Program-made: the position numbers and the translations under genes
Notes under the pieces: generated by a model
The model's input: the letters and a program-made list of their open reading frames with translations, nothing else
The model's database searches: none
Told to the model about the DNA's origin: nothing
In this document: positions 14,859-44,532 of the stretch, piece by piece
Layout: every line of letters begins with the position of its first letter
Numbering within the stretch: position 1 is the first letter of the stretch
Assembly: GCA_040753955.1 (NCBI GenBank)
Contig: JBFMDQ010000005.1
Location: 1 to 61,848 of the forward strand
Origin: Nitrospirota bacterium
GTDB taxonomy: Bacteria; Nitrospirota; Thermodesulfovibrionia; Thermodesulfovibrionales; SM23-35
Direction: 5' to 3'
Length of the DNA: 61,848 nucleotides

Positions 14859-15089
14859 TGTACATACCCCTCATAATGAACAACTAACTTAAAGAAAAAT
14901 TTAGCTTTTTAATAGTTTATTAAAAATTTATTCCTAATACAAGGCAAAAATCTTATTGACAAGAACGGTTTGGAGACATGAAGACTGAAGAGACTGAGTT
15001 TTCTCTTGCCCTAATATGCTATTTGTGATATTTTAGTACAGATAAGGTTAATGCACCTATTTTAGGTGGAGGTGCAAATTCAGGGTAGT

Positions 15090-15312
15090 TGCCTGCCCTG
15101 TTAGTGATGGATGAAGAGATTGATCCGGCAAATTAGGTCTTTTGGGAGCTTGCGTAAGGAGTCAGTGTGCATGCCCCGCACCAACCCTTGTTACCAGGGT
15201 AGTTTGTTATTAAGCCTTCTGACAAGGATCGGTGCGGGGAAGCCTAAAGCCTTCTTCAGGGCACCCACCTATTATATAGGCGGATCTAATTCTTCCTTTA
15301 CACGGCAGGGCG
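15090..15312 (+). ncRNA. ssrS: 6S RNA with an extended apical hairpin
   Basis: Long self-complementary rod (GAAGAGATTGATCCG / CGGATCTAATTCTTC; GCCCTG / CAGGGC); GGGAGC and GGGCACCCACC motifs; conserved position upstream of rny. Confidence 0.75.
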
Positions 15313-15325
15313 GGTTTATTTTAGC

Positions 15326-34028: not shown

Positions 34029-34406
34029 CTACTTCGAAGTTTCTATTCTGACATGAATAGAACTCCCGAGTTTTTTTAGAGCCTCAGGAGTATCAATTAG
34101 TCTACCCACAGGGTTTACAGGGGAAACTGCCCGGGGTTCCTTTCCTTTGCTTACAGGGGTGGGACCAAAGAATATACAAAGAGCCTTGCCAGTAGGCCAT
34201 ACAGCTAGTTCTCCCACTTCCATAACATCTCTCGCATCGTGAGAAAGTTCCACCTCAATGCCACAATCTCCATAATACTCACCTCCCCATCTTGACATGC
34301 TGAATTCAAGGGGTAGTAGAGACATCAACTCTTTGGAAGAAGGAGAGTCATTAAGTTCTGCTGAAAGTTCTAATTCCCCTACCCTTATTTTTACAGGCGC
34401 TGGCAT
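34029..34406 (-). CDS. Cyclophilin-like fold protein (TM1367-like)
   Basis: LPLE...RWGGEYY...GELAVWPTGKALCIFFGPTP. Confidence 0.8.
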   Translation of the reverse strand: MPAPVKIRVGELELSAELNDSPSSKELMSLLPLEFSMSRWGGEYYGDCGIEVELSHDARDVMEVGELAVWPTGKALCIFFGPTPVSKGKEPRAVSPVNPVGRLIDTPEALKKLGSSIHVRIETSK

Positions 34407-34418
34407 AAATCCCTCTAC

Positions 34419-35321
34419 TCAGATCTCTTTAACCAGAACATAATTTGCCATCTCTGTATTTGATATCACTGCATGGCCTGTTCTTGATATAGCTATGATA
34501 CCCACCTTGATTTTAGGAGGAAACATGTTAATGCCCTTTCTGCAAGCCCTTTTGATATCCTCACCATGGAATATCATATCATACACTGTTTTTGCCAACA
34601 CCTTTTTTATAATCTCTTCACCCATTCCCGTAGTAGCCAATGCACATGCAGGACCTGCATAGAATCCGCAACCTATCATAGGCCCGTCTCCTACCCTTCC
34701 CAGCATCATTGGTGAAAAACCACCGGTCGAATTCGCCACTGCAAGGACACCTTCCTTATCTATTGCGACGGCTCCGACAGTATTGCAGAAGATCTCTTTA
34801 TAAGAAACATCATCAAAATTCCACAAAGATTCAATATCATGGCCTTTCCAAAGCGAGGCCTCTTCGCTTAATCTACCTTCTTTTATTATTTGCCTCACTC
34901 TTTTATATCTTTTTAGAACACGTTGTGAAACCTGATAAAAAGGTGCAAAGCCTCGTTTCCTTGCGAATGCCGTTGCTCCCTGACCTGATAGTGCAACGTG
35001 AGGAGTTTCCATAACGGCTTTTGCTACAAGTATCGGATTCTTTACATCTCTGATAGCGATGACTACGCCAATATTCGCGTTTGAATCCATAATAGCTGCA
35101 TCCATCTCTATTGTCTTACCATCAAGGCGCAGGACAGAGCCCCTTCCTGCATTAAATCTGCCATCATCTTCAAGGACCTGTGCTGCTTCAACTACTGCAT
35201 CTAATGAGCCTTTGCCTGCCTCAAGAAGTTCAAAGGCAGACTCGCAGGCCCTTTTACATCCATCTGAGAAGTGAGAAGGAGAACCTGCTCCACCATGAGC
35301 TACAACACCGTAGAGAATCAT
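34419..35321 (-). CDS. Isoaspartyl peptidase / L-asparaginase (Ntn hydrolase)
   Basis: HGGAG, FNAGRG, EMDAAIM, N-TVGAVA nucleophile and GRVGD motifs. Confidence 0.92.
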   Translation of the reverse strand: MILYGVVAHGGAGSPSHFSDGCKRACESAFELLEAGKGSLDAVVEAAQVLEDDGRFNAGRGSVLRLDGKTIEMDAAIMDSNANIGVVIAIRDVKNPILVAKAVMETPHVALSGQGATAFARKRGFAPFYQVSQRVLKRYKRVRQIIKEGRLSEEASLWKGHDIESLWNFDDVSYKEIFCNTVGAVAIDKEGVLAVANSTGGFSPMMLGRVGDGPMIGCGFYAGPACALATTGMGEEIIKKVLAKTVYDMIFHGEDIKRACRKGINMFPPKIKVGIIAISRTGHAVISNTEMANYVLVKEI

Positions 35322-35360
35322 TTTAACCTATACTTTCGAAGTCATTTAATATTGTTATAT

Positions 35361-35394
35361 AGGGCTCAAGGACTCGAGGGTCCTAGGATTCGAG
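35361..35394. repeat. Degenerate octamer tandem (AGGRYTCR)x4
   Basis: AGGGCTCA AGGACTCG AGGGTCCT AGGATTCG; same unit type as 43485-43516. Confidence 0.65.
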
Positions 35395-35459
35395 CAGTCA
35401 GACAAGAGCCGTAATGACAAAGTCGTAAACGAGATAGGGCATTAGATTTGCATGAATCA

Positions 35460-36650
35460 TTAATTTTCTGACCTTTTCCTCACCCCAAAACCCTTCCCCC
35501 TCAGGTCTGAGAGAATTTCCTCTAAATGTTTCTTGTTCCGTATCTCAACCATGAAAACAACTCTCGCCTTGCCTACCGGGAGGTCTCCTGCAAATCTATC
35601 GTGAACAACATCAAGGATATTCCCCCTGTGGGAAGCAATGACACCTGTCAGAGAGTGAAGGCTTCCGGGGATATCATCAACAGTTACTTCAAAAACCCCT
35701 ATCCTCCCAGTTTTTACAAGACCTTTGTGAATTATCCTGTCAACGAGTGTAAAATCTATATTGCCACCGCTGACAATAAGGACAATTCTCTTTCCAATAA
35801 ACTTCTCTCTGTTTTCTAATAGGGCTGCAAGGGGAACAGCCCCGGCACCTTCAACCACAAGTTTCTTCCTTTCCATGAAAAGGAGTATTGCCATGGCAAT
35901 GGAGTCTTCTCTCACTAAAATTATGTCATCCACATATTTATTCATAATCTCAAATGCTTTTTCTCCGATCATGCCAATCGCTATCCCATCGGCAAGAGTG
36001 GGCAATGGGGGCTTATCATAGATCTTTTTCTCCCTGAATGAAACATAGGCAGAAGTAGCGGACTCTGTCTGAACTCCAATTATCTGAGTCTTCGGCGACA
36101 AGGCCTTTACTGCAATTGAAATCCCGGATACAAGACCACCTCCTCCTACGGGGACGAATATAATGTCCACATCTCTTAAATCCTCAATTATCTCTACACC
36201 AATAGTCCCCTGACCAGCAATCACCTCTTCATCATCGAAGGCATGTATGAAAATATAATCCTCCTGGGAAAGGGCATAATCCAGTGCTTCTTTAAAACTA
36301 TCTCCATAAAGTACAACCTCTGCGCCGTAGCTCTTTGTAGCCTCTTCTTTTACAATAGGGGCTGTCACGGGCATAGCTATCTTTGCATGTATCCCGATTC
36401 TTCTTGCAGCGAAAGCAATTGCCTGCGCATGATTGCCCATAGATGCAGCTATTACTTTACCTCTGATATGAATCATCTTATTGAAGGCACCCCTGACCTT
36501 GAATGAGCCTGTCTTCTGAAGGTTTTCTGCCTTCAGATAGACCTCAGCCCCTGTCATCTTACTGAAGGAGTTGGAATAGATTAATGGAGTCTTATGGACA
36601 TGATCCCTTATATTTTCTGCTGCATTCTGGATGTCATTTATCTCTAACAC
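35460..36650 (-). CDS. ilvA: Threonine ammonia-lyase with C-terminal ACT domain
   Basis: KAENLQKTGSFKVRGA, SMGNHAQ, VPVGGGGL and SGGNID motifs. Confidence 0.93.
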   Translation of the reverse strand: MLEINDIQNAAENIRDHVHKTPLIYSNSFSKMTGAEVYLKAENLQKTGSFKVRGAFNKMIHIRGKVIAASMGNHAQAIAFAARRIGIHAKIAMPVTAPIVKEEATKSYGAEVVLYGDSFKEALDYALSQEDYIFIHAFDDEEVIAGQGTIGVEIIEDLRDVDIIFVPVGGGGLVSGISIAVKALSPKTQIIGVQTESATSAYVSFREKKIYDKPPLPTLADGIAIGMIGEKAFEIMNKYVDDIILVREDSIAMAILLFMERKKLVVEGAGAVPLAALLENREKFIGKRIVLIVSGGNIDFTLVDRIIHKGLVKTGRIGVFEVTVDDIPGSLHSLTGVIASHRGNILDVVHDRFAGDLPVGKARVVFMVEIRNKKHLEEILSDLRGKGFGVRKRSEN

Positions 36651-36890
36651 CTGCTTTTCCCCTTCTTTTTATCTTTCCTTTGATTATCATAATCGGACAC
36701 ACCATTATACCAAATCCTGTTTCTATGGATTCATGCAAATATATTTTGGGTCTCCCAAGCCTAATTCGAGGCAAGATGCCTCGACTATTTTCTAAAAGAG
36801 ATTTGGCTATTTTTGATATTCTGTGAAAATAGATCAGACACCTTGCCTGATTGAAAAATCCCTCTCTTTTCCGTTTTGAATTTTTAGGTT

Positions 36891-37185: not shown

Positions 37186-37788
37186 GTGTCCAAAATAGAC
37201 GAATTAAAAAGAAGCCTGCTGTATTCTGAAGAACTGAGAATTGAGTTAAAGAAAAATAATGACGATGAACTTTTTAAATGGTTTTTAGCGAGTATCCTCT
37301 TTGGGGCAAGAATATCTGAAACAATTGCAAAAAATACATACAAAGCCTTCGAAAAATATAATCTCCTGGAGCCGCAAAAGATATTAGAGGCGGGCTGGGA
37401 TTTCTTGGTAGATCCAATTATGAGAGAAGGAGGGTACGTCCGCTACGATTTTAAAACATCCACAAAGATCTTGAAAATTTGCGAAACCTTTATAAAGGAA
37501 TATGATGGGAGTTTGAAAAAACTGCATAACGAATCTAAAGATAAAAATGACTTGGAAAACAGATTACTGGATTTTTACGGCATCGGTCCTGTAACAATGA
37601 ATATTTTTCTGAGGGAATTAAGACCCTATTGGGAGAAGGCAGACCCAGAACCCTTGCCAATAGTCAGAAAAATAGCCCAGAAACTTGGAATAGCTTTAAA
37701 TAAGTACGGCAGGAAAAGCCCTACCTTCACAAGGATTGAGGCGGGATTGATAAGATTAAGAAGAAGTGATTTAGCTTATCCCTGCTGA
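37186..37788 (+). CDS. HhH-GPD superfamily protein (DNA glycosylase-like)
   Basis: GIGPVTMNIFLREL HhH motif; FKWFLASILFGARI and GGYVRYD; GAGG RBS before GTG. Confidence 0.75.
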   Translation: MSKIDELKRSLLYSEELRIELKKNNDDELFKWFLASILFGARISETIAKNTYKAFEKYNLLEPQKILEAGWDFLVDPIMREGGYVRYDFKTSTKILKICETFIKEYDGSLKKLHNESKDKNDLENRLLDFYGIGPVTMNIFLRELRPYWEKADPEPLPIVRKIAQKLGIALNKYGRKSPTFTRIEAGLIRLRRSDLAYPC

Positions 37789-38029: not shown

Positions 38030-38176
38030 TAATACAAACGCATTAAATGCCTTTACATCGTCATTGCGAGCGACCAACGGGAGCGTGGCAATCTCACTTT
38101 ATAAGTAGGAGATTGCTTCGTCGCCCGCCTTTGGCGGACTCCTCGCAATGACACTTTACTTAATGCGTTTGTATTA
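38030..38176. mobile_element. 147-bp MITE with perfect 17-bp TIRs and nested REP units
   Basis: TAATACAAACGCATTAA 38030-38046 / TTAATGCGTTTGTATTA 38160-38176; inner GTCATTGCGAG/CTCGCAATGAC and GCAATCTC/GAGATTGC. Confidence 0.8.
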
Positions 38177-38218: not shown

Positions 38219-38872
38219 TCAAGGAAAAAGTGTGAGATGCTTCTTAAACCACTCAGCCGCGAATCTTGCCACCTCTTCCAGCGTGCCGGGCTCTTCAAAC
38301 AAATGCGTTGCACCAGGAATAATTCTCAATTCTTTTTCAGCTTTGATCAGCTTGTATGATTGTTGATTAAGCTGGATGACTACGTCGTCGTAGCCTCCGA
38401 CTATCAGGAGAGTTGGAGCTTTAACGTGCTCAAGGGCTTGCTCTGCGAGATCTGGGCGACCGCCGCGTGAGACGATTGCACTTACTCCTATGCCAGGTTC
38501 AGTAGCTGCCAAGAGTGCTGCAGCAGCTCCTGTACTTGCCCCAAAATAGCCGATATTGAGATTTCTGGTTTGCGGCTGATCTTTGATCCATCGGGTAGCT
38601 GCTATCAAACGCTCTGCCAGCAAAGGCATATCAAAACGTTTTTCATAGAAAGTATCTTCTTCCCTGGTGAGCAGGTCAAAAAGCAGCGTGCCCAGTCCAG
38701 CTTCATGGAGCACCTGTGCCACATACTTGTTTCTCTTGCTGTGCCGGCTGCTGCCACTGCCGTGTGCAAAAATTACCAATGCCTGCGCCTCTCGAGGGAC
38801 ATCCAGAACTCCTTCGAGGACAGCGGAATCCGCAGGGATATGGACTAACTTTGAGGAGTTGTCACTAAGCAT
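38219..38872 (-). CDS. Alpha/beta hydrolase, dienelactone-hydrolase-like (the type often fused to PRTases)
   Basis: FAHGSGSSRHS, GYFGASTGA nucleophile elbow, SRGGRPDL, PGATHLFEEPG. Confidence 0.9.
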   Translation of the reverse strand: MLSDNSSKLVHIPADSAVLEGVLDVPREAQALVIFAHGSGSSRHSKRNKYVAQVLHEAGLGTLLFDLLTREEDTFYEKRFDMPLLAERLIAATRWIKDQPQTRNLNIGYFGASTGAAAALLAATEPGIGVSAIVSRGGRPDLAEQALEHVKAPTLLIVGGYDDVVIQLNQQSYKLIKAEKELRIIPGATHLFEEPGTLEEVARFAAEWFKKHLTLFP

Positions 38873-38938
38873 ACTGATCCTCTAAACAGTATTTAACCCT
38901 CAATGTGTCGAAGTTGTCAAGAATGCTAAAATTAATGT

Positions 38939-39952
38939 GTGAAGAAAGAGGCATATTTATACAATAGGCTTGATGAAGGAAAGGTTATGTGCCACACGTG
39001 TCAGAGGAGATGTGTAATCTCGGAAGGGAAAAGGGGCTGGTGTCATACGAGGCTAAATGAAGGTGGGAAACTCTTCAGCCTGATATATGGAGAGGTTTCC
39101 TCACTATCAATAAACCCAATTGAAAAAAAGCCTGTCTTTCATTTCTATCCTGGCTCGAGATGGCTCTCCCTGGGAAGTGTGGGATGTAACTTTCGCTGTC
39201 TTGGCTGCCAGAACTGGGATATAGCCCATTGGAAGGAAGGACCGATGTACACGGAACACCTATCTCCAGAGGAATTGGTTTCTAAGACGAAGGCCACTCG
39301 TTCTTTAGGTATTTCGTGGACTTTCAATGAACCGGCTTTATGGTTTGAATACACCCTTGATGGGGCAAAACTTGCAAAGGCTCAAGGACTCTATACTAAT
39401 TATGTAACTAATGGTTTTATTACAGGAGAGGCCTTTGACATGATCGCGCCCTATCTTGATGTCTATAGAGTTGATATAAAAGGCTTCTCTGACAGGACAT
39501 ATCAGAGAATCGGTCACATAGAAAAGTTTAAAGGGATCCTCGAGATAGCTGAAAAGGCGAAGGAATACGGAATGCATGTGGAGGTCGTAACGAATATTAC
39601 ACCGGGATTCAATGATGACGAGAAAGAACTCCGGGGCATTGCATCATGGGTTAAAAATATCCTCGGCCCTGAAGTTCCCTGGCATGTTACAAGGTTTTAT
39701 CCCCATCTTAAGCTCAGCCATCTGCATCCAACACCTATCTCTGAACTCGAAAAGGCATGGTCTATAGGGAAAGAGGAAGGACTCTGGTATGTCTATCTCG
39801 GAAATGTCCCAGGCCACAGGTGGGAAAATACCTATTGTCATGTCTGTGGTGAACTGCTCATAGAAAGATATGTCTTTGAGATTATAAAAAATAAGCTTAA
39901 AGATAGTAGATGCCCGAAATGTAGCACTATTATACCAGGAAAATTTTCCTGA
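38939..39952 (+). CDS. AmmeMemoRadiSam-system radical SAM enzyme (PflX-like)
   Basis: N-terminal CxxC..C..C Zn domain; IEKKPVFHFYPG; CNFRCLGC SAM motif; C-terminal CxxC pairs. Confidence 0.9.
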   Translation: MKKEAYLYNRLDEGKVMCHTCQRRCVISEGKRGWCHTRLNEGGKLFSLIYGEVSSLSINPIEKKPVFHFYPGSRWLSLGSVGCNFRCLGCQNWDIAHWKEGPMYTEHLSPEELVSKTKATRSLGISWTFNEPALWFEYTLDGAKLAKAQGLYTNYVTNGFITGEAFDMIAPYLDVYRVDIKGFSDRTYQRIGHIEKFKGILEIAEKAKEYGMHVEVVTNITPGFNDDEKELRGIASWVKNILGPEVPWHVTRFYPHLKLSHLHPTPISELEKAWSIGKEEGLWYVYLGNVPGHRWENTYCHVCGELLIERYVFEIIKNKLKDSRCPKCSTIIPGKFS

Positions 39953-39958
39953 AGTGTT

Positions 39959-40125
39959 AAATCCTAAATTCTAAACAATATCAAATGACAGAAATCCAAA
40001 GTTATGATTCAGGGTATAAGAAAAGTTTTTTACATTTGAATTTGTTTAGGATTTAGACTTCGTCGTGAGCCCTCGACCTGAGCTCGGGCCGAAGGTTCAG
40101 TCGAACGACATCAGGATTCGGAATT
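39959..40125. repeat. Inverted heptamer-type element with a nested REP-in-REP insert, supplying the hel308 stop
   Basis: CTAAATTCTAAACAA 39964-39978 / TTGTTTAGGATTTAG 40042-40056 (14/15), then GACTTCGTCG...TCAGTCGAACG. Confidence 0.7.
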
Positions 40126-42264
40126 TAAAAGAGTCTGGTTTTTTATATCCTCTGCAATGGTCTTTCCCATAGCTGGCACTTTTGCGAGCTCCTCGATTGA
40201 CGCCTCTCTGATGTTTTTAAGAGTTTTATACCCTGCATCATAGAGATTTCTTGCCCTCACCCTTCCTATACCTCGCAGGGTCACGAGTGGGAGGAGTTCT
40301 TCCCTTACGCCATATATGACTCTCGTCCTCAAAAGTGACACAGCCTTTCCCCCCGCCTTCAAACTAAAGACCCTGGCTATCTCACCAGCCGAATAAAGAA
40401 GCCAATCCGAAAGCTCCACCAATGTGCGGAGGTCGCCCGGCCCTACACCAAAATGGCCGACTATCCTGTCTTCTGGCGTCTCCAGTATCCACTGCATCAG
40501 GAGAGAAGCGGTCTTAAGCTCGGAAAGAATCTCATCTGACGGATATCTTTCATCCTCGGGGATTAAAAGCTCTTCAGCGTGGGCATAGAATACTTCGATC
40601 ATCTCCCTATAGTCCTTCTTCCTCAGTTGAAGCACCATCATATCCGGTGTATGAGCTATCATATGAAGGAGAGGCAATACCTCTTTTCCCTTAGGCTGGT
40701 GCAAAGCATCCCTGATTATTAGGCCTGTCAAAGGGTCTATATAAAGCTCTGAGACGCGATGGCCAAACCTTGTGGCTGCAAATCCCCTTTTATCGGCTAT
40801 TACCATTCCCTCGGTTGCAAGAAAATCAACTATCTTATCTGTGATGGATGTGAGGTACCCAACCCCTCTCTGATAGGCAAAAAAGGTATGTTTCAGAAAA
40901 TCTATTAACTCTGCCTTGTTTCGTGTAAAGACACCTGCTATGGATGCAAGGATGTGGGACCTGAGGGCAGACTCATTGGCAAGTTGAGAAGTTATCTTTT
41001 CAGGCCTGCCAGCAATGTAATTCTTAAATAGGTTCTGTTCGTCCCTCTTATCTCGGGCTATGAGGATGGCTTCTCCATATCTATCAAACCCGGGTCTTCC
41101 CGCCCTTCCTGACATCTGTTTTATCTCGATGACAGGGATTGGACGGATTCCGAGTCCAAATTGGTACCTCCACCAATCTCGGATAATAACCCTTCGTGAT
41201 GGCAGATTCAGTCCCATCGCAAGCGTAGTGGTAGCAGCGACGAGCTTTATTTTGTTACCTCTGAAGGCATCCTCGATAAGTCTCCTCTGTGAGGAATTAA
41301 TACCCGCATGGTGGAAGGCAACACCTTTGCTTACACATTCGGCAAGTTTTTTACATAGTCGAGTTGGCTCTGGAGATGCCTCGATAACTTGCTCTGAAAG
41401 CCTTTTAAGAGATTCCTTTTCCTGCTCCTGAAGCATATCGGCAATATCCCAGGAGGCCCTACGAGCAACTGTCTCGGTTGACCTTCTTGTGTTTACAAAG
41501 ATGAGGGCTTGTCCAGCATCTTTTATAGTCTCAATGGCGAGATTTAACACATCCAGGTAGCTCACTTTCTCTATCCACTTTACAGAACCATCATTAAAGA
41601 TTACGGCACTATTAAAATAGACTCCCTCTCTGAGGGGTACAGGCCTCCAGTCAGATTCGATGAGCTGTGCATTAAGCCATGTGGCGATCTCGGCTGCATT
41701 CGGTATAGTAGCACTTAATGCTATAAACCTAAGTCCTGGATTCATCCACCTCAAACGGGTAAGGACAGCCTCAAGGGTGGGTCCCCTGTGGGAGTCTCCA
41801 AGGAGATGGATCTCATCTGCTACGACAAGGTTCACCTCCCTTAGCCATGAGGCACGATGCCTTAAGAGAGAGTCCATTTTCTCGTTTGTTGATATGATGA
41901 GGTCAGCGTTATAAAGCCAGGGATCTGCACTGTCGTAATCACCCGTGCTCTGCACTATCCTTATACCAATGTCTCTATACTTCTTTGAGAAGTCTTCAAA
42001 TTTCTCCCTAGCGAGGGCCCTTAAAGGCACAAGGTAAATAACCTTTCCTCCTGTCTTTAAAAACATCTTGAGTGCTGCTATCTCGGCGATAAGGGTCTTG
42101 CCAGATGCAGTAGGGGCTGCCACGACAAAAGAATCTCGACCTTTCAAGAGGTCTGCCTTTATTGCCAGAACCTGGGGCGGATAAAACTCCTTAAGACCTA
42201 TAGAAGCCAGAGTCTCTATGAGCCTCTCAGACCCGCCATAGGCACCTAAATCCCTTATATTCAT
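40111..42264 (-). CDS. Archaeal-type Ski2-like SF2 helicase Hel308
   Basis: APTASGKT, DEIH, SAT, FHHAG and QMSGRAGRPG motifs; C-terminal GIGRVRAR HhH domain. Confidence 0.9.
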   Translation of the reverse strand: MNIRDLGAYGGSERLIETLASIGLKEFYPPQVLAIKADLLKGRDSFVVAAPTASGKTLIAEIAALKMFLKTGGKVIYLVPLRALAREKFEDFSKKYRDIGIRIVQSTGDYDSADPWLYNADLIISTNEKMDSLLRHRASWLREVNLVVADEIHLLGDSHRGPTLEAVLTRLRWMNPGLRFIALSATIPNAAEIATWLNAQLIESDWRPVPLREGVYFNSAVIFNDGSVKWIEKVSYLDVLNLAIETIKDAGQALIFVNTRRSTETVARRASWDIADMLQEQEKESLKRLSEQVIEASPEPTRLCKKLAECVSKGVAFHHAGINSSQRRLIEDAFRGNKIKLVAATTTLAMGLNLPSRRVIIRDWWRYQFGLGIRPIPVIEIKQMSGRAGRPGFDRYGEAILIARDKRDEQNLFKNYIAGRPEKITSQLANESALRSHILASIAGVFTRNKAELIDFLKHTFFAYQRGVGYLTSITDKIVDFLATEGMVIADKRGFAATRFGHRVSELYIDPLTGLIIRDALHQPKGKEVLPLLHMIAHTPDMMVLQLRKKDYREMIEVFYAHAEELLIPEDERYPSDEILSELKTASLLMQWILETPEDRIVGHFGVGPGDLRTLVELSDWLLYSAGEIARVFSLKAGGKAVSLLRTRVIYGVREELLPLVTLRGIGRVRARNLYDAGYKTLKNIREASIEELAKVPAMGKTIAEDIKNQTLLNSES

Positions 42265-42375
42265 AAGTAAGCTTATCTCATAGGATTAAGAAATACAATA
42301 GATTAAGCCTAATCCGAGGCAATTCGCCTTTGGCGGATTGCCTGACCCAAAGTCCAAAATTTGCTAAACTAAATA

Positions 42376-43473
42376 ATGGCACAGTGCAAGATATGTAATG
42401 CTATTTCGAACTCCATCTCAAAGGAGCTCAGCATATGCCTTAAATGTATAAGGGAAAAACCTGATGATTCCCTTCCATTTGCAATGCAGGCTCATAGGAG
42501 GAGCAGGTCTGCCTTTGGGCTTCCTGAGAATCCTCCAAAGGATCCTAAGGGAGTTCCCTGCAGAATCTGCGTGAATGAATGCAGAATTCCCGAAGATGGA
42601 ACAGGATTCTGTGGATTGAGAAAAAATGAAGGAGGAAGGCTTATAGGTGTAACGGCAATGCAGGGCAAACTTTCATGGTATTATGACCCCCTTCCAACAA
42701 ATTGTGTTGGAGACTGGGTATGCCCCGGAGGGACAGGGGCAGGCTACCCAGAATATGCTTACTCACCAGGGCCTGAGATAGGATATAAAAATCTCGCAGT
42801 ATTTTTCCATGCCTGCTCTTTCAATTGCCTTTTTTGTCAGAACTGGCATTTCAAGAGGGAAACCTTACGGCCACAGACAACTTCTGTAAGTAAACTTGTC
42901 TCAGATGTTGATAAAAAGACCTCCTGTATCTGTTATTTTGGAGGTGACCCAACACCACAACTACCATTTGCACTCAGGGCATCGAGGCTTTCCCTCGAGA
43001 AGAATAAGGGAAGAATCCTCAGGATATGCTGGGAGACAAATGGCTCCATGAATAAAGCATTCCTTGATAAGATGATAGAACTCTCTCTGAATTCTGGTGG
43101 CTGTATAAAGTTTGATCTAAAGGCATGGGATGAAAATCTCCATATAGCCCTGACAGGTACCACTAATAAAAGAACCTTGGAGAATTTCTCAAGGGTTGGC
43201 GAAAAGATCAAGGTGAGACCTATCCCTCCTCTTCTAATTGCAAGCACCCTCCTTGTGCCAGGCTACATAGATGAGAAAGAGATAAGAGGCATTGCGAAAT
43301 TCATCGCCTCAATAGATCCTGATATTCCCTATAGCCTGCTTGCCTTTTATCCCCATTTTTATATGTCGGACATGCCTTTAATAACAAAGGCCCTTGCTAT
43401 GGGATGTCTCAGGGCTGCTCAAGAAGAAGGGGTCAAAAATGTGAGGATTGGGAATGTCCACCTGCTCGTATGA
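42376..43473 (+). CDS. PflX-like radical SAM protein with N-terminal Zn fingers
   Basis: CSFNCLFC motif; CKIC...CLKC and CRICVNEC...C; WETNG, KFDLKA. Confidence 0.85.
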   Translation: MAQCKICNAISNSISKELSICLKCIREKPDDSLPFAMQAHRRSRSAFGLPENPPKDPKGVPCRICVNECRIPEDGTGFCGLRKNEGGRLIGVTAMQGKLSWYYDPLPTNCVGDWVCPGGTGAGYPEYAYSPGPEIGYKNLAVFFHACSFNCLFCQNWHFKRETLRPQTTSVSKLVSDVDKKTSCICYFGGDPTPQLPFALRASRLSLEKNKGRILRICWETNGSMNKAFLDKMIELSLNSGGCIKFDLKAWDENLHIALTGTTNKRTLENFSRVGEKIKVRPIPPLLIASTLLVPGYIDEKEIRGIAKFIASIDPDIPYSLLAFYPHFYMSDMPLITKALAMGCLRAAQEEGVKNVRIGNVHLLV

Positions 43474-43484
43474 ATAACCATGAA

Positions 43485-43567
43485 AGGGTTCGAGGATTCG
43501 AGGGTTCAAGGGTTCGAGTTTTATAAATTATTTCACTTGACCACTTGAATCCTTGACCCCCTGAACC
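43485..43567. repeat. Inverted pair of octamer arrays
   Basis: (AGGGTTCG-type)x4 at 43485-43516, then (CACTTGAC/TCCTTGAC-type)x4 at 43534-43567. Confidence 0.8.
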
Positions 43568-43581
43568 TTATTTTTGATTAA

Positions 43582-44268
43582 ATGGCTGAAATAGTAGAAG
43601 ATAAGAACCTGAGAAACAAAGTATTTGTCTTCGAAGACAGGATCCAGGCAGGCAGGAGGCTTTCAGAGTTTCTCTCAGATTATAGAGGTTCTGATTCAAT
43701 TGTACTTGCCATTCCGTCAGGAGGTATCCCTGTTGGAAAAGAGATAAAGGATGCCTTATCCCTTAATCTTGACCTGTTGATTGTTCGGAAAATCCAGATA
43801 CCCTGGAATCCTGAGGCAGGTTTTGGAGCTGTAAATCTTGATGGATATGTGATATTTAACGAGGAGCTTCTCCGTCAACTCTACCTCCCGGAAAGTGTGA
43901 TTAATACCCAGGTTGAGAAGACAAAAGAGATACTCAAGAAACGTGATGCGTTGTTCAGAAAAGGGAAGGATTTCCCCTCCTTAAAAAATAAAACGGCAAT
44001 CCTCGTAGATGATGGTCTTGCCTCAGGATATACAATGATTGCTGCTACGGAGTTCGTGAGGAAACGCAACCCCTCCAAAATCGTGATAGCCGTCCCCACA
44101 GCTTCTTATAAAACTGTCCAGAGGATCTCTCCCTTTGTGGATACCCTTTACTGTCTTAATATTAGAGAAGACCTTCCCTATGCTGTTGCCGAGGCATACA
44201 GAAACTGGTATGACCTGAGTGGTGAAGAGGTCTTTAGATTAATACAATCAGATCATTTAGTGGAGTAG
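43582..44268 (+). CDS. Phosphoribosyltransferase-fold protein
   Basis: FEDRIQAGRRL, LAIPSGGIPV and PRPP loop ILVDDGLASGYT. Confidence 0.9.
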   Translation: MAEIVEDKNLRNKVFVFEDRIQAGRRLSEFLSDYRGSDSIVLAIPSGGIPVGKEIKDALSLNLDLLIVRKIQIPWNPEAGFGAVNLDGYVIFNEELLRQLYLPESVINTQVEKTKEILKKRDALFRKGKDFPSLKNKTAILVDDGLASGYTMIAATEFVRKRNPSKIVIAVPTASYKTVQRISPFVDTLYCLNIREDLPYAVAEAYRNWYDLSGEEVFRLIQSDHLVE

Positions 44269-44356: not shown

Positions 44357-44492
44357 CGCAACAGCCGATAGCAGAGTGCTTGAGGTTAATACACAAAGGC
44401 GACGCCCTTCTCGATCACTCGAAACGATACCCAAAATGACGCTTCGCTTGAACGCCTTTATAGGCATTTGTAACATGCATTATGAATGTTAG
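44357..44492. repeat. attC-like repeat family copy 3 (mosaic of copies 1 and 2)
   Basis: 44357-44412 matches 720-772; 44421-44492 matches 1336-1410 apart from a 3-bp indel and one substitution. Confidence 0.85.
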
Positions 44493-44532
44493 TGCTTTAA
44501 TGCTTTAATAAAATGGTCATTGCGAGGACTAA

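Follow-up and report, generated by a model that had tools for sequence, protein, structure and literature searches.

The window analysed here, a stretch of 61,848 nucleotides from a Nitrospirota bacterium (contig JBFMDQ010000005.1), was found to contain a compact group of genes between positions 38219 and 44268. A check of the open reading frames and profile searches placed the genes at the positions, and in the families, given by the initial annotation. The group began with a gene of a DLH-family serine hydrolase (38219..38872, minus strand; PF01738, E 8e-9), followed, across a divergent spacer of 66 nt (38873..38938, read directly from the sequence), by the radical SAM gene rSAM1 (38939..39952, plus strand). 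The gene of a Hel308-like SF2 DNA helicase (40111..42264, minus strand) was present between rSAM1 and a second radical SAM gene, rSAM2 (42376..43473, plus strand). The last gene encoded a TT1426-like PRTase of subfamily A (43582..44268, plus strand; PF00156). 6S RNA was detected in the genome, and the host is a bacterium, its genome probably being a MAG from the order Thermodesulfovibrionales (Nitrospirota).

The neighbouring HhH protein noticed by the initial annotation, HhH200 (37186..37788, plus strand), had no sequence match in Pfam or the PDB. The top 50 Foldseek matches of its AlphaFold (AF2) model (pLDDT 90.7) were all HhH-GPD glycosylases (TM 0.39–0.60), which points to a HhH-GPD-fold protein. 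More than 5000 homologues were found, 70–85% identical across phyla. They were present near rSAM1 or rSAM2 in loci L009, L011, L020, L045, and L209, and had unrelated neighbours in four contexts from other phyla; HhH200 is a loose, variable neighbour of rSAM1.

The intergenic regions were rich in repeats. HhH200 and the DLH gene were separated by a palindromic element (38030..38176) with perfect 17-nt inverted arms (38030–38046 and 38160–38176), which included a copy of a dispersed repeat family. The GTCATTGCGAGG motif was found in 51 copies in the genome and, on the contig of the window, only at 38141 (minus) and 44516 (plus). The latter copy, carried by the repeat-rich spacer 3' of the PRTase gene (44357..44528), paired with 38140–38169 to give a 30-nt inverted repeat of 80%. 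The 25-nt repeat with a hairpin upstream of the Hel308 gene (42305..42329, plus strand) had its sole other genomic copy, of 84% identity, at 36757–36781, upstream of ilvA, and the AAGCCTAATYCGAGGCAA motif occurred only twice in the 1.69-Mb genome. The spacer between rSAM2 and the PRTase gene (43474..43581), also read directly, contained an array of GGGTTCGAG-like units with inverted counterparts and could probably form a long hairpin.

The rSAM1 protein scored 291 bits against TIGR04337, the AmmeMemoRadiSam radical SAM model (cut-off 220), and no AMMECR1 or MEMO gene was found within the window; the initial description as an AmmeMemoRadiSam radical SAM lacking these partners nearby was thus borne out. 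The suggested search elsewhere in the same genome (G000) located both, AMMECR1 at C11:10730-11215 and MEMO at C7:13-795. The AmmeMemoRadiSam system has reportedly been tied to nucleotide-base or isoprenoid modification. The rSAM1 protein shared the Cys-cluster architecture of the system: besides the CNFRCLGCQNW motif, it carried a CxxCxxxCx9C cluster at the N-terminus and a CxxC...CxxC ribbon at the C-terminus. However, rSAM1 was the lower scorer of two TIGR04337 genes, the other being at C7:39494-40504 (354 bits), and was located apart from AMMECR1 and Memo; its recurrent neighbours were instead DLH, subfamily-B PRTase (PRT-B), and rSAM2. rSAM1 is a second ('type-2') paralogue of AmrS, with orthologues at about 20 loci (58–92% identity). 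Because a −10-like TGCTAAAAT was present about 5 nt 5' of its GTG start, within the DLH/rSAM1 spacer, the rSAM1 mRNA may be leaderless and the element a candidate promoter. L009 retained the sequence upstream of rSAM1, and the L208 and L209 loci carried a similar TAGTAAAAT immediately ahead of the start codon.

The rSAM2 protein contained an N-terminal CxxC...CxxC ribbon, in agreement with its initial description as a Zn-finger radical SAM, and a CxxCxxxCx9C cluster. It was 28% identical to rSAM1, its TIGR04337 score was only 57.5 bits, and PFL-AE was its sole relative in the PDB. Homologues of at least 60% identity were found in Nitrospirota, Desulfobacterota, Dehalococcoidia, and Methanothrix, and rSAM2 belongs to an uncharacterised, highly conserved radical SAM family, a more distant paralogue of AmrS. 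Type-2 rSAM1 was present beside rSAM2 in L007, L009, L010, L012, L015, and L022, whereas rSAM2 was alone in most of more than 80 loci. In an unbiased sample of 17 genomes, type-2 rSAM1 adjoined rSAM2 in two, and an AmrS-family gene of any type was found within 8 kb of rSAM2 in five. The link between rSAM1 and rSAM2 is therefore partial.

The Hel308 gene was found to be an insertion between these two genes. Blastn comparison with L009, L010, and L013 showed that the match ended at 39941–39947 and restarted at 42368–42377, leaving 39948..42376 (the Hel308 gene with spacers of 158 and 111 nt) unmatched. The closest relative, L009, had the gene order HhH-DLH-rSAM1-rSAM2-PRT-ACAD-PmbA with 87–98% protein identity across the interval; there Hel308 was absent, and 10 nt separated the rSAM1 stop from the rSAM2 start. 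Hel308 was also missing from the syntenic site in L010, L012, L015, and L022, and the rSAM1/rSAM2 junction was tight or overlapping in L007, L010, L012, L015, L022, and G031. MAG138, a close relative, had the tight junction (L010), and its Hel308 gene (79% identity) was located next to hypA/B/F on a different contig. Hel308 is thus a lineage-specific insertion between rSAM1 and rSAM2.

The protein contained DEAD, Helicase_C, HTH_61, Helicase_dom4_arc, and HHH_5 domains. Like archaeal Hel308 (Hjm) and Ski2-like helicases, it had the full set of five domains, among them the ratchet domain 4 and, at the C-terminus, the HhH domain 5, and its helicase motifs were intact, but it scored below the cut-offs of the NCBIfam equivalog models (NF002654, 834 bits against 887; NF040935, 592 bits against 1200). 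It also differed from them in belonging to a patchy bacterial clade with no conserved partner gene: it was present in nine of 201 Nitrospirota genomes, in a different context in each. The nearest relatives were bacterial (Nitrospirota and Ca. Brocadia, 60–79% identity). The composition of the gene gave no outlier signal, and the proposed acquisition from an archaeal pool would be ancient at best.

Repair ATPases were sometimes found directly upstream of rSAM2, namely Hel308 in the window, UvrD-like genes in L011 and L014, RecD2 in L005 and L006, and a UvrA-like gene in G187. RadC, RecJ-like, and LigA genes were among the downstream neighbours, and a HhH200 homologue adjoined in L045. These findings would be in line with rSAM2, together with the HhH-GPD protein, being a DNA repair or modification enzyme accompanied by interchangeable repair ATPases. 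However, the pattern was noticed post hoc, and helicases were only two of 72 upstream neighbours. When 11 new loci were inspected, helicases were absent and a UvrA-like gene was seen once. The neighbours met most often overall were THEP1-like NTPase (13/77), RibF, NusB, and GTPases of the dynamin-like type. Repair genes were enriched roughly two-fold at best, with no proper baseline for comparison, and we consider this role improbable. A role in anti-phage defence, for instance with a Hachiman-like helicase, a viperin-like radical SAM, or a PRTase effector, is extremely unlikely: PADLOC gave partial matches to HamB (helicase core, E 1.5e-55), to pVip (E 5e-9), and to ShosT (E 1.4e-5), which spanned only the generic helicase, radical SAM, and PRPP-loop cores. 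The HamA/DUF1837 partner was absent, rSAM2, DLH, and HhH200 had no PADLOC match, and the genes of the cluster were not inherited together.

A serine elbow (GASTG) and a C-terminal His were present in the DLH protein, which was 55–73% identical to the DLHs of 42 further Nitrospirota genomes. Sixteen of the 42 had a PRTase gene adjacent to or fused with the DLH gene, and the partner PRTases that were sequenced belonged to subfamilies B and B'. The PRTase of the window had an intact VDDGLASG PRPP loop and matched PDB 1WD5 (TT1426 of T. thermophilus; E 3e-27); it was 48–79% identical to subfamily A and 33–40% identical to the DLH-partnered subfamily B. The second PRTase of the genome, of subfamily B, was found on another contig (C10:36672-37313). 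A subfamily-A PRTase was never found beside DLH, and the initial view that the hydrolase and PRTase, as types known from fusions in other bacteria, bracket the cluster was not upheld. Close relatives differed in what lay between rSAM2 and the gene of the acyl-CoA dehydrogenase: L011 had an intact PRTase gene, L009 a truncated one, and L010 and L013 none.

The initial annotation proposed the five genes, with the HhH protein adjacent, as a candidate undescribed module whose chemistry would modify or repair nucleosides or nucleic acids and would stem from an archaeal-like pool. The genes were intact and compactly arranged, and HhH200 had a DNA-glycosylase fold. In addition, the Hel308 gene was divergent from a subfamily-A PRTase gene (54% identity) in Ca. 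Brocadia and contiguous with a HhH200 homologue in G191, two odd co-occurrences. Against this stood the relatives without Hel308 at the syntenic site, its separate location in MAG138, its bacterial relatives and unremarkable composition, and the PRTase subfamily. Furthermore, none of 91 other Hel308 neighbourhoods contained an rSAM1 or rSAM2 orthologue or DLH. The five-gene set, and Hel308 with it, did not co-occur in other genomes, the outcome that the initial annotation had itself named as refuting; the single module is already largely refuted and very unlikely.

The association of radical SAM, PRTase, and hydrolase genes was, by contrast with the five-gene set, seen again in L208, L209/L210, and genus g54. 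Both L009 and the window had the DLH gene divergent from rSAM1. The L208 locus carried a 492-amino-acid PRT-B::DLH fusion in divergent orientation to an rSAM1 orthologue (80% identity), and in L209 the DLH and PRT-B genes were divergent from rSAM1 (76% identity), followed by another radical SAM gene and HhH200. This DLH-PRT-B|rSAM1 block (L209/L210) was duplicated within one genome (G234), with 86% identity over 2.7 kb. DLH, PRT-B, and type-2 rSAM1 were thus found together in two other Thermodesulfovibrionales genomes. In genus g54, of another family, a Memo::AMMECR1 gene and a TIGR04337 gene (606 bits) adjoined PRT, DLH, SerRS, and class II RNR genes. A PRT/DLH fusion of 443 amino acids was present in G118, and PRT-B was two genes from rSAM1 in L012. 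Because related hydrolases were paired or fused with PRT-B, DLH, PRT-B, and rSAM1 were taken as a recurrent unit. Among the approximately 20 type-2 rSAM1 loci, adjacency to DLH was confined to the window/L009, L208, and L209/L210, and none of seven more rSAM1 loci from an even sample of the phylum had these neighbours; the trio is a minority arrangement.

Ancestral synteny and selection cannot be fully separated for the trio, because all positives except g54 were in one order. All adjacencies, including DLH|rSAM1 and rSAM1-rSAM2, might be inherited synteny or chance in a fluid, repeat-rich region. The dispersed repeats, the gene decay in relatives, and the unrelated neighbours at most type-2 rSAM1 and most rSAM2 loci agree with such an absence of functional linkage. 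This is nevertheless unlikely, given the fusion divergent from rSAM1 in L208, the duplication of the block as a unit in G234, the independent case in g54 with its canonical Memo::AMMECR1 and AmrS operon, and the operon-like junctions of rSAM1 and rSAM2 (10 nt or overlapping). PRTases of subfamilies A, B, and B' were also found beside AmrS-type genes in differing lineages.

We therefore favour, with a probability of about 0.68, a mosaic in which a conserved core, an inserted Hel308, and a subfamily-A PRTase in a variable slot adjoin by chance. In the core, rSAM1 and rSAM2 would normally form a two-gene operon divergent from DLH, which in other Thermodesulfovibrionales is accompanied by or fused to PRT-B; in the genome of the window, PRT-B lies on another contig. 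The Hel308 gene entered the space between the two radical SAM genes solely in this lineage and would function independently, its family suggesting 3'-5' DNA unwinding in stalled-fork or recombination repair. The subfamily-A PRTase is the third component of the mosaic, and its slot differs in content even among close relatives.

The closest known counterpart of the hydrolase is Rv0571c of M. tuberculosis, which we take to be a fused PRTase::dienelactone-hydrolase, adjoined presumably by Rv0570, NrdZ. The DLH of the window was orthologous to the PRTase-partnered hydrolases of 16 Nitrospirota genomes, and class II RNR genes were present near some related loci; in contrast to the Rv0571c-type pair or fusion, DLH and the PRTase in the window were 4.7 kb apart on opposite strands. 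Rv0571c belongs to the DevR/DosR regulon (PMC3177182), which, like the lxa locus of B. cenocepacia (PMC3721108), is a low-oxygen or stasis gene island. Related loci shared PRT/DLH, class II RNR, and AmmeMemoRadiSam genes with such islands, whereas in the window no regulator, USP, HPF, other hallmark gene, or FNR-like box was found, and its host is an anaerobe. Going beyond the observed gene families, insertion, and recurrence, we infer that the core probably belongs to hypoxia- or stasis-type sets with Rv0571c-like PRT::DLH and class II RNR, in which the substrate of a PRPP-dependent transferase, of an esterase, and of radical SAMs resembling PFL activase would be either a small molecule of nucleobase-like type or a protein partner.

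The genes of the interval were found to recur in other genomes as two smaller units, a trio of DLH-family hydrolase, TT1426-like phosphoribosyltransferase (PRT) and rSAM1, and a pair of rSAM1 and rSAM2, and not as the five-gene module that had been proposed from their co-location; that reading is therefore supported in part. The helicase Hel308 is a bystander, and so is the PRT of the window itself.

An ORF check and searches with Pfam and NCBIfam profiles confirmed the coordinates and families given to all five genes in the initial annotation, and their catalytic motifs were intact. The hydrolase (DLH; 38219–38872, minus strand) was recognised by its family profile. rSAM1 (38939–39952, plus strand) scored 291.1 bits on TIGR04337, the profile of the AmmeMemoRadiSam radical SAM enzyme AmrS, which is above the curated cut-off of 220 bits and makes it a member, and rSAM2 (42376–43473, plus strand), at 57.5 bits, is a non-member. 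Both contained the radical SAM CxxxCxxC motif (CNFRCLGCQNW in rSAM1 and CSFNCLFCQNW in rSAM2) and matched PF04055 with E-values of 2.9e-21 and 5.4e-16, respectively; rSAM2 also contained an N-terminal CxxC...CxxC ribbon and the CxxCxxxCx9C pre-cluster present in rSAM1. The Hel308-like helicase (40111–42264, minus strand) matched all five domains, namely RecA1 (PF00270), RecA2 (PF00271), winged helix (PF20470), ratchet domain 4 (PF21280) and HhH domain 5 (PF14520), and contained the helicase motifs AAPTASGKT, DEIH, SAT and QMSGRAGR, with scores below the NCBIfam equivalog cut-offs (834 vs 887 for NF002654 and 592 vs 1200 for NF040935). The PRT (43582–44268, plus strand) matched PF00156 (E 1.6e-15), and its intact PRPP-binding loop, ILVDDGLASGYT, was invariant across 13 aligned PRTs, as in type I phosphoribosyltransferases. 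The best matches throughout were MAGs of the Nitrospirota and Thermodesulfovibrionales. A 6S RNA gene was present at 15087–15320 (Rfam RF00013, 81 bits), which confirms a bacterial host.

In our study, 80 genomic loci around rSAM2 homologues were gathered and the window's genes were located in each. Co-localisation of the five genes was absent from these 80 loci, from 91 Hel308 loci and from the 201-genome sample of the phylum, and subsets alone recurred. The locus of the closest relative (L009) had the gene order HhH-DLH-rSAM1-rSAM2-PRT-ACAD-PmbA, without Hel308, and its rSAM1 and rSAM2 were 10 nt apart; a tight or overlapping rSAM1/rSAM2 junction was also found in L007, L010, L012, L015 and L022 (the last from genome G031). 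By blastn, nucleotides 39948–42376 of the window had no counterpart in L009, L010 or L013. The genome MAG138 contained the tight junction on one contig (L010) and a Hel308 gene, 79% identical, on another, beside hypA/B/F. Of the 201 Nitrospirota genomes in the even sample, 9 contained Hel308, and its context differed in every one; no rSAM1 or rSAM2 orthologue and no DLH was found in the 91 Hel308 neighbourhoods from genomes and metagenome contigs, which held one PRT (Ca. Brocadia) and one homologue of the adjacent HhH200 protein (G191, a genome of a distant Nitrospirota family). Because of these junctions in the relatives and the unrelated contexts of Hel308, we conclude that the Hel308 gene stands alone and entered the rSAM1/rSAM2 junction in the window's lineage; its most likely role is an independent one in DNA repair. 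The origin from an archaeal-like pool was not borne out: the closest relatives of Hel308 were bacterial (60–79% identity), its composition was unremarkable (GC z 1.2, GC3 z 1.0), and a recent archaeal transfer is rejected.

Three other links of Hel308 were considered and set aside. The Ca. Brocadia locus (L109:5611–9223) suggested a link with the PRT subfamily of the window, since Hel308 (74%) was there divergent from a subfamily-A PRT (54% identical to the window's PRT) and a LigD_N phosphoesterase. It was the sole other Hel308-PRT adjacency found, in 1 of the 91 Hel308 loci, and genomes G040 and G166 contained both genes on different contigs. A link with HhH200, prompted by G191, was likewise found in 1 of the 91 loci. 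Hel308, the HhH200 homologue (46%) and an asparaginase homologue (36%) were contiguous on one strand in G191 (L101:7221–11142), and in the window members of these three families are found within 8 kb of one another. The third, an anti-phage defence reading, drew on PADLOC matches, which were to generic cores alone. Its HamB match covered the helicase core alone, HamA (DUF1837), which stands beside the helicase in Hachiman systems, was missing, and Hel308 was flanked by rSAM1 and rSAM2.

The absence of AMMECR1 and Memo beside rSAM1 in the window was confirmed, and rSAM1 does not show the clustering or fusion with these genes that is typical of AmmeMemoRadiSam systems. A partner search of the window's genome (G000) located AMMECR1 on contig C11 and Memo at the end of contig C7. 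A second TIGR04337 gene, outside the window (C7:39494–40504), scored 354 bits vs 291 bits for rSAM1 and was 39 kb from Memo; the AMMECR1 and Memo genes probably have this copy as their cognate partner. The relatives showed the same two TIGR04337 score classes, and the recurrence survey followed the lower-scoring, type-2 clade of rSAM1. In L208, a 492-aa fusion of a subfamily-B PRT and DLH was divergent from an rSAM1 that was 80% identical, and in L209 a DLH-PRT-B pair was divergent from rSAM1 (76%), which was followed first by a small radical SAM gene and then by an HhH200 homologue. The block PRT-DLH-PRT-B-rSAM1(5') was present twice in one chromosome, that of genome G234 (L209:8300–10988 and L210:8091–10787; 2.7 kb, 86% identity), and the second copy was about 9 kb from rSAM2. 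L012 contained rSAM1-rSAM2 followed, two genes further, by a subfamily-B PRT. In g54, a genus of a different family, a Memo::AMMECR1 fusion and a canonical AmrS (606 bits) adjoined a PRT of the B' group, a DLH, seryl-tRNA synthetase and class II ribonucleotide reductase (RNR). From these cases we conclude that AmrS-type radical SAM, TT1426-type PRT and DLH are associated. The arrangement is found in a minority of loci, and seven further type-2 rSAM1 loci from the even sample had no such neighbours. Other features of these loci were a third radical SAM gene, small (248–273 aa) and directly beside type-2 rSAM1 in three genomes (L012:4210–4956, L077:6718–7473 and L209:11507–12328), a truncated rSAM1 and a PRT with a stop codon in the second G234 copy, and a THUMP-domain protein 3' of rSAM1 in L208.

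The hydrolase and the PRT had been described as bracketing the cluster and as belonging to types known as fused domains. The second part of this statement stood: DLH orthologues were found in 42 other genomes of the phylum sample, with a TT1426-like PRT within about 200 nt, or fused, in 16 of the 42, and in G118 the fusion was a 443-aa PRT-DLH ORF, so that the two families form a real pair type. The window's DLH was 55–73% identical to the DLHs adjacent or fused to PRT in the 16 genomes and is their orthologue. The bracketing itself did not hold as a pair of the Rv0571c type, as in the window 4.7 kb and three genes separate DLH from PRT, and the two are on opposite strands. In the identity matrix, the sequenced DLH-partnered PRTs formed subfamily B (49–84% mutual identity), together with the related B' group in g54, but the window's PRT belonged to subfamily A, with 48–79% identity to the PRTs of L011, G040, G166, G169 and Ca. 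Brocadia and 33–40% to subfamily B. No subfamily-A PRT was found beside a DLH. The genome's own subfamily-B copy was at C10:36672–37313, between SIS/OMP-decarboxylase-like genes and ftsY. The slot 3' of rSAM2 varied; it contained an intact subfamily-A PRT in L011 and a 3'-truncated one in L009, and the PRT was absent from L010 and L013.

Members of the rSAM2 family (window 42376–43473; loci L009–L088) shared at least 60% identity between Nitrospirota, Desulfobacterota, Dehalococcoidia and archaea of the genus Methanothrix. rSAM2 was mostly found alone or 5' of a THEP1-like NTPase (PF03266), which followed rSAM2 of Desulfobacterota in 13 of 77 loci. In a few genomes, repair ATPases were present directly upstream of rSAM2, namely Hel308 in the window, UvrD-like in L011 and L014, RecD2 in L005 and L006, and UvrA-like in G187. 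An enrichment of helicases at this position was rejected, and we grade the pattern as a weak lead and not a finding because 11 fresh loci held no helicase.

HhH200 (37186–37788; 200 aa), adjacent to the interval, had no Pfam match and no match in a PDB sequence search. Its AlphaFold2 model (pLDDT 90.7) had HhH-GPD glycosylases as all of its top 50 Foldseek PDB matches (TM 0.39–0.60, E-values 6e-3 and weaker), which gives it a predicted HhH-GPD fold. About 20 residues past the HhH hairpin, where the superfamily has the catalytic Asp, the sequence reads EKANPEP, and the D/N position varies in an alignment of 25 sequences. The family has more than 5000 homologues and is 70–85% identical across Nitrospirota, Atribacterota, Cloacimonadota and Proteobacteria. 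Fixed membership in a module was rejected, as four contexts in other phyla were unrelated.

A -10-like TAAAAT was conserved 5–8 nt 5' of the rSAM1 start codon in the window (38920–38941), L009, L208 and L209, a position that suggests a leaderless or near-leaderless mRNA. No FNR-type box was found within 2 mismatches in the divergent spacers. The rSAM2-PRT spacer (43474–43581) contained an array of GGGTTCGAG-like units followed by inverted counterparts (CCTTGACC / CTTGAATCC), which can probably form a long hairpin. A 25-nt hairpin repeat (AAGCCTAATYCGAGGCAA...) was present at 36757–36781 and 42305–42329 and nowhere else in the 1.69-Mb genome. One copy is upstream of ilvA and the other upstream of Hel308, both of them minus-strand genes that the closest relative has in degraded form or lacks. 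The DLH-to-PRT block was flanked exactly by an inverted repeat of 30 nt (80%; 38140–38169 and 44499–44528). This repeat is a member of a dispersed family, GTCATTGCGAGG, found 51 times in the genome (about one copy per 33 kb), and the flanking may be due to chance; the pair at 38141/44516 was rejected as the ends of a mobile unit, since two copies on the contig match the expected density. The asparaginase and ilvA genes, intact in the window (34387–36558), were reduced to short fragments by internal deletions in L009 (6451–7096); both genes were lost in the L009 lineage. The many dispersed repeats and these deletion remnants fit a fluid neighbourhood.

The trio and the pair are a variant of systems already known, though uncharacterised. 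The AmmeMemoRadiSam enzymes, the Rv0571c/TT1426-type PRT-esterase pair and rSAM2 proteins each have a wide distribution, and our literature search found no function assigned to the AmmeMemoRadiSam system, TT1426 or Rv0571c. The core would be akin to the hypoxia or stasis gene sets with Rv0571c and class II RNR. Rv0571c belongs to the DevR/DosR regulon (PMC3177182); for class II RNR in such gene sets, compare PMC3721108. A nucleobase-like metabolite or a protein partner could be the target of the PRPP-dependent transferase, the serine esterase and the PFL-activase-like radical SAM enzymes. It is unlikely that the type-2 AmrS-like enzyme, rSAM2 and the PRT and esterase, with the HhH-GPD-fold protein beside them in some genomes, make up an anaerobic pathway not yet described, in which a nucleobase-like molecule is made, modified or salvaged, or nucleic acid is repaired; the repair ATPases beside rSAM2 would then point to a genuine tie with DNA metabolism.

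Leaving out Hel308 and the subfamily-A PRT averts a misleading annotation as an archaeal repair module. PRT-B and DLH, and not AMMECR1 and Memo, accompany a distinct AmrS paralogue, which has rSAM2 as a frequent operon partner; each of these results narrows the problem, and together they give a small set of proteins to co-express and a radical SAM system tied to PRPP-dependent chemistry.
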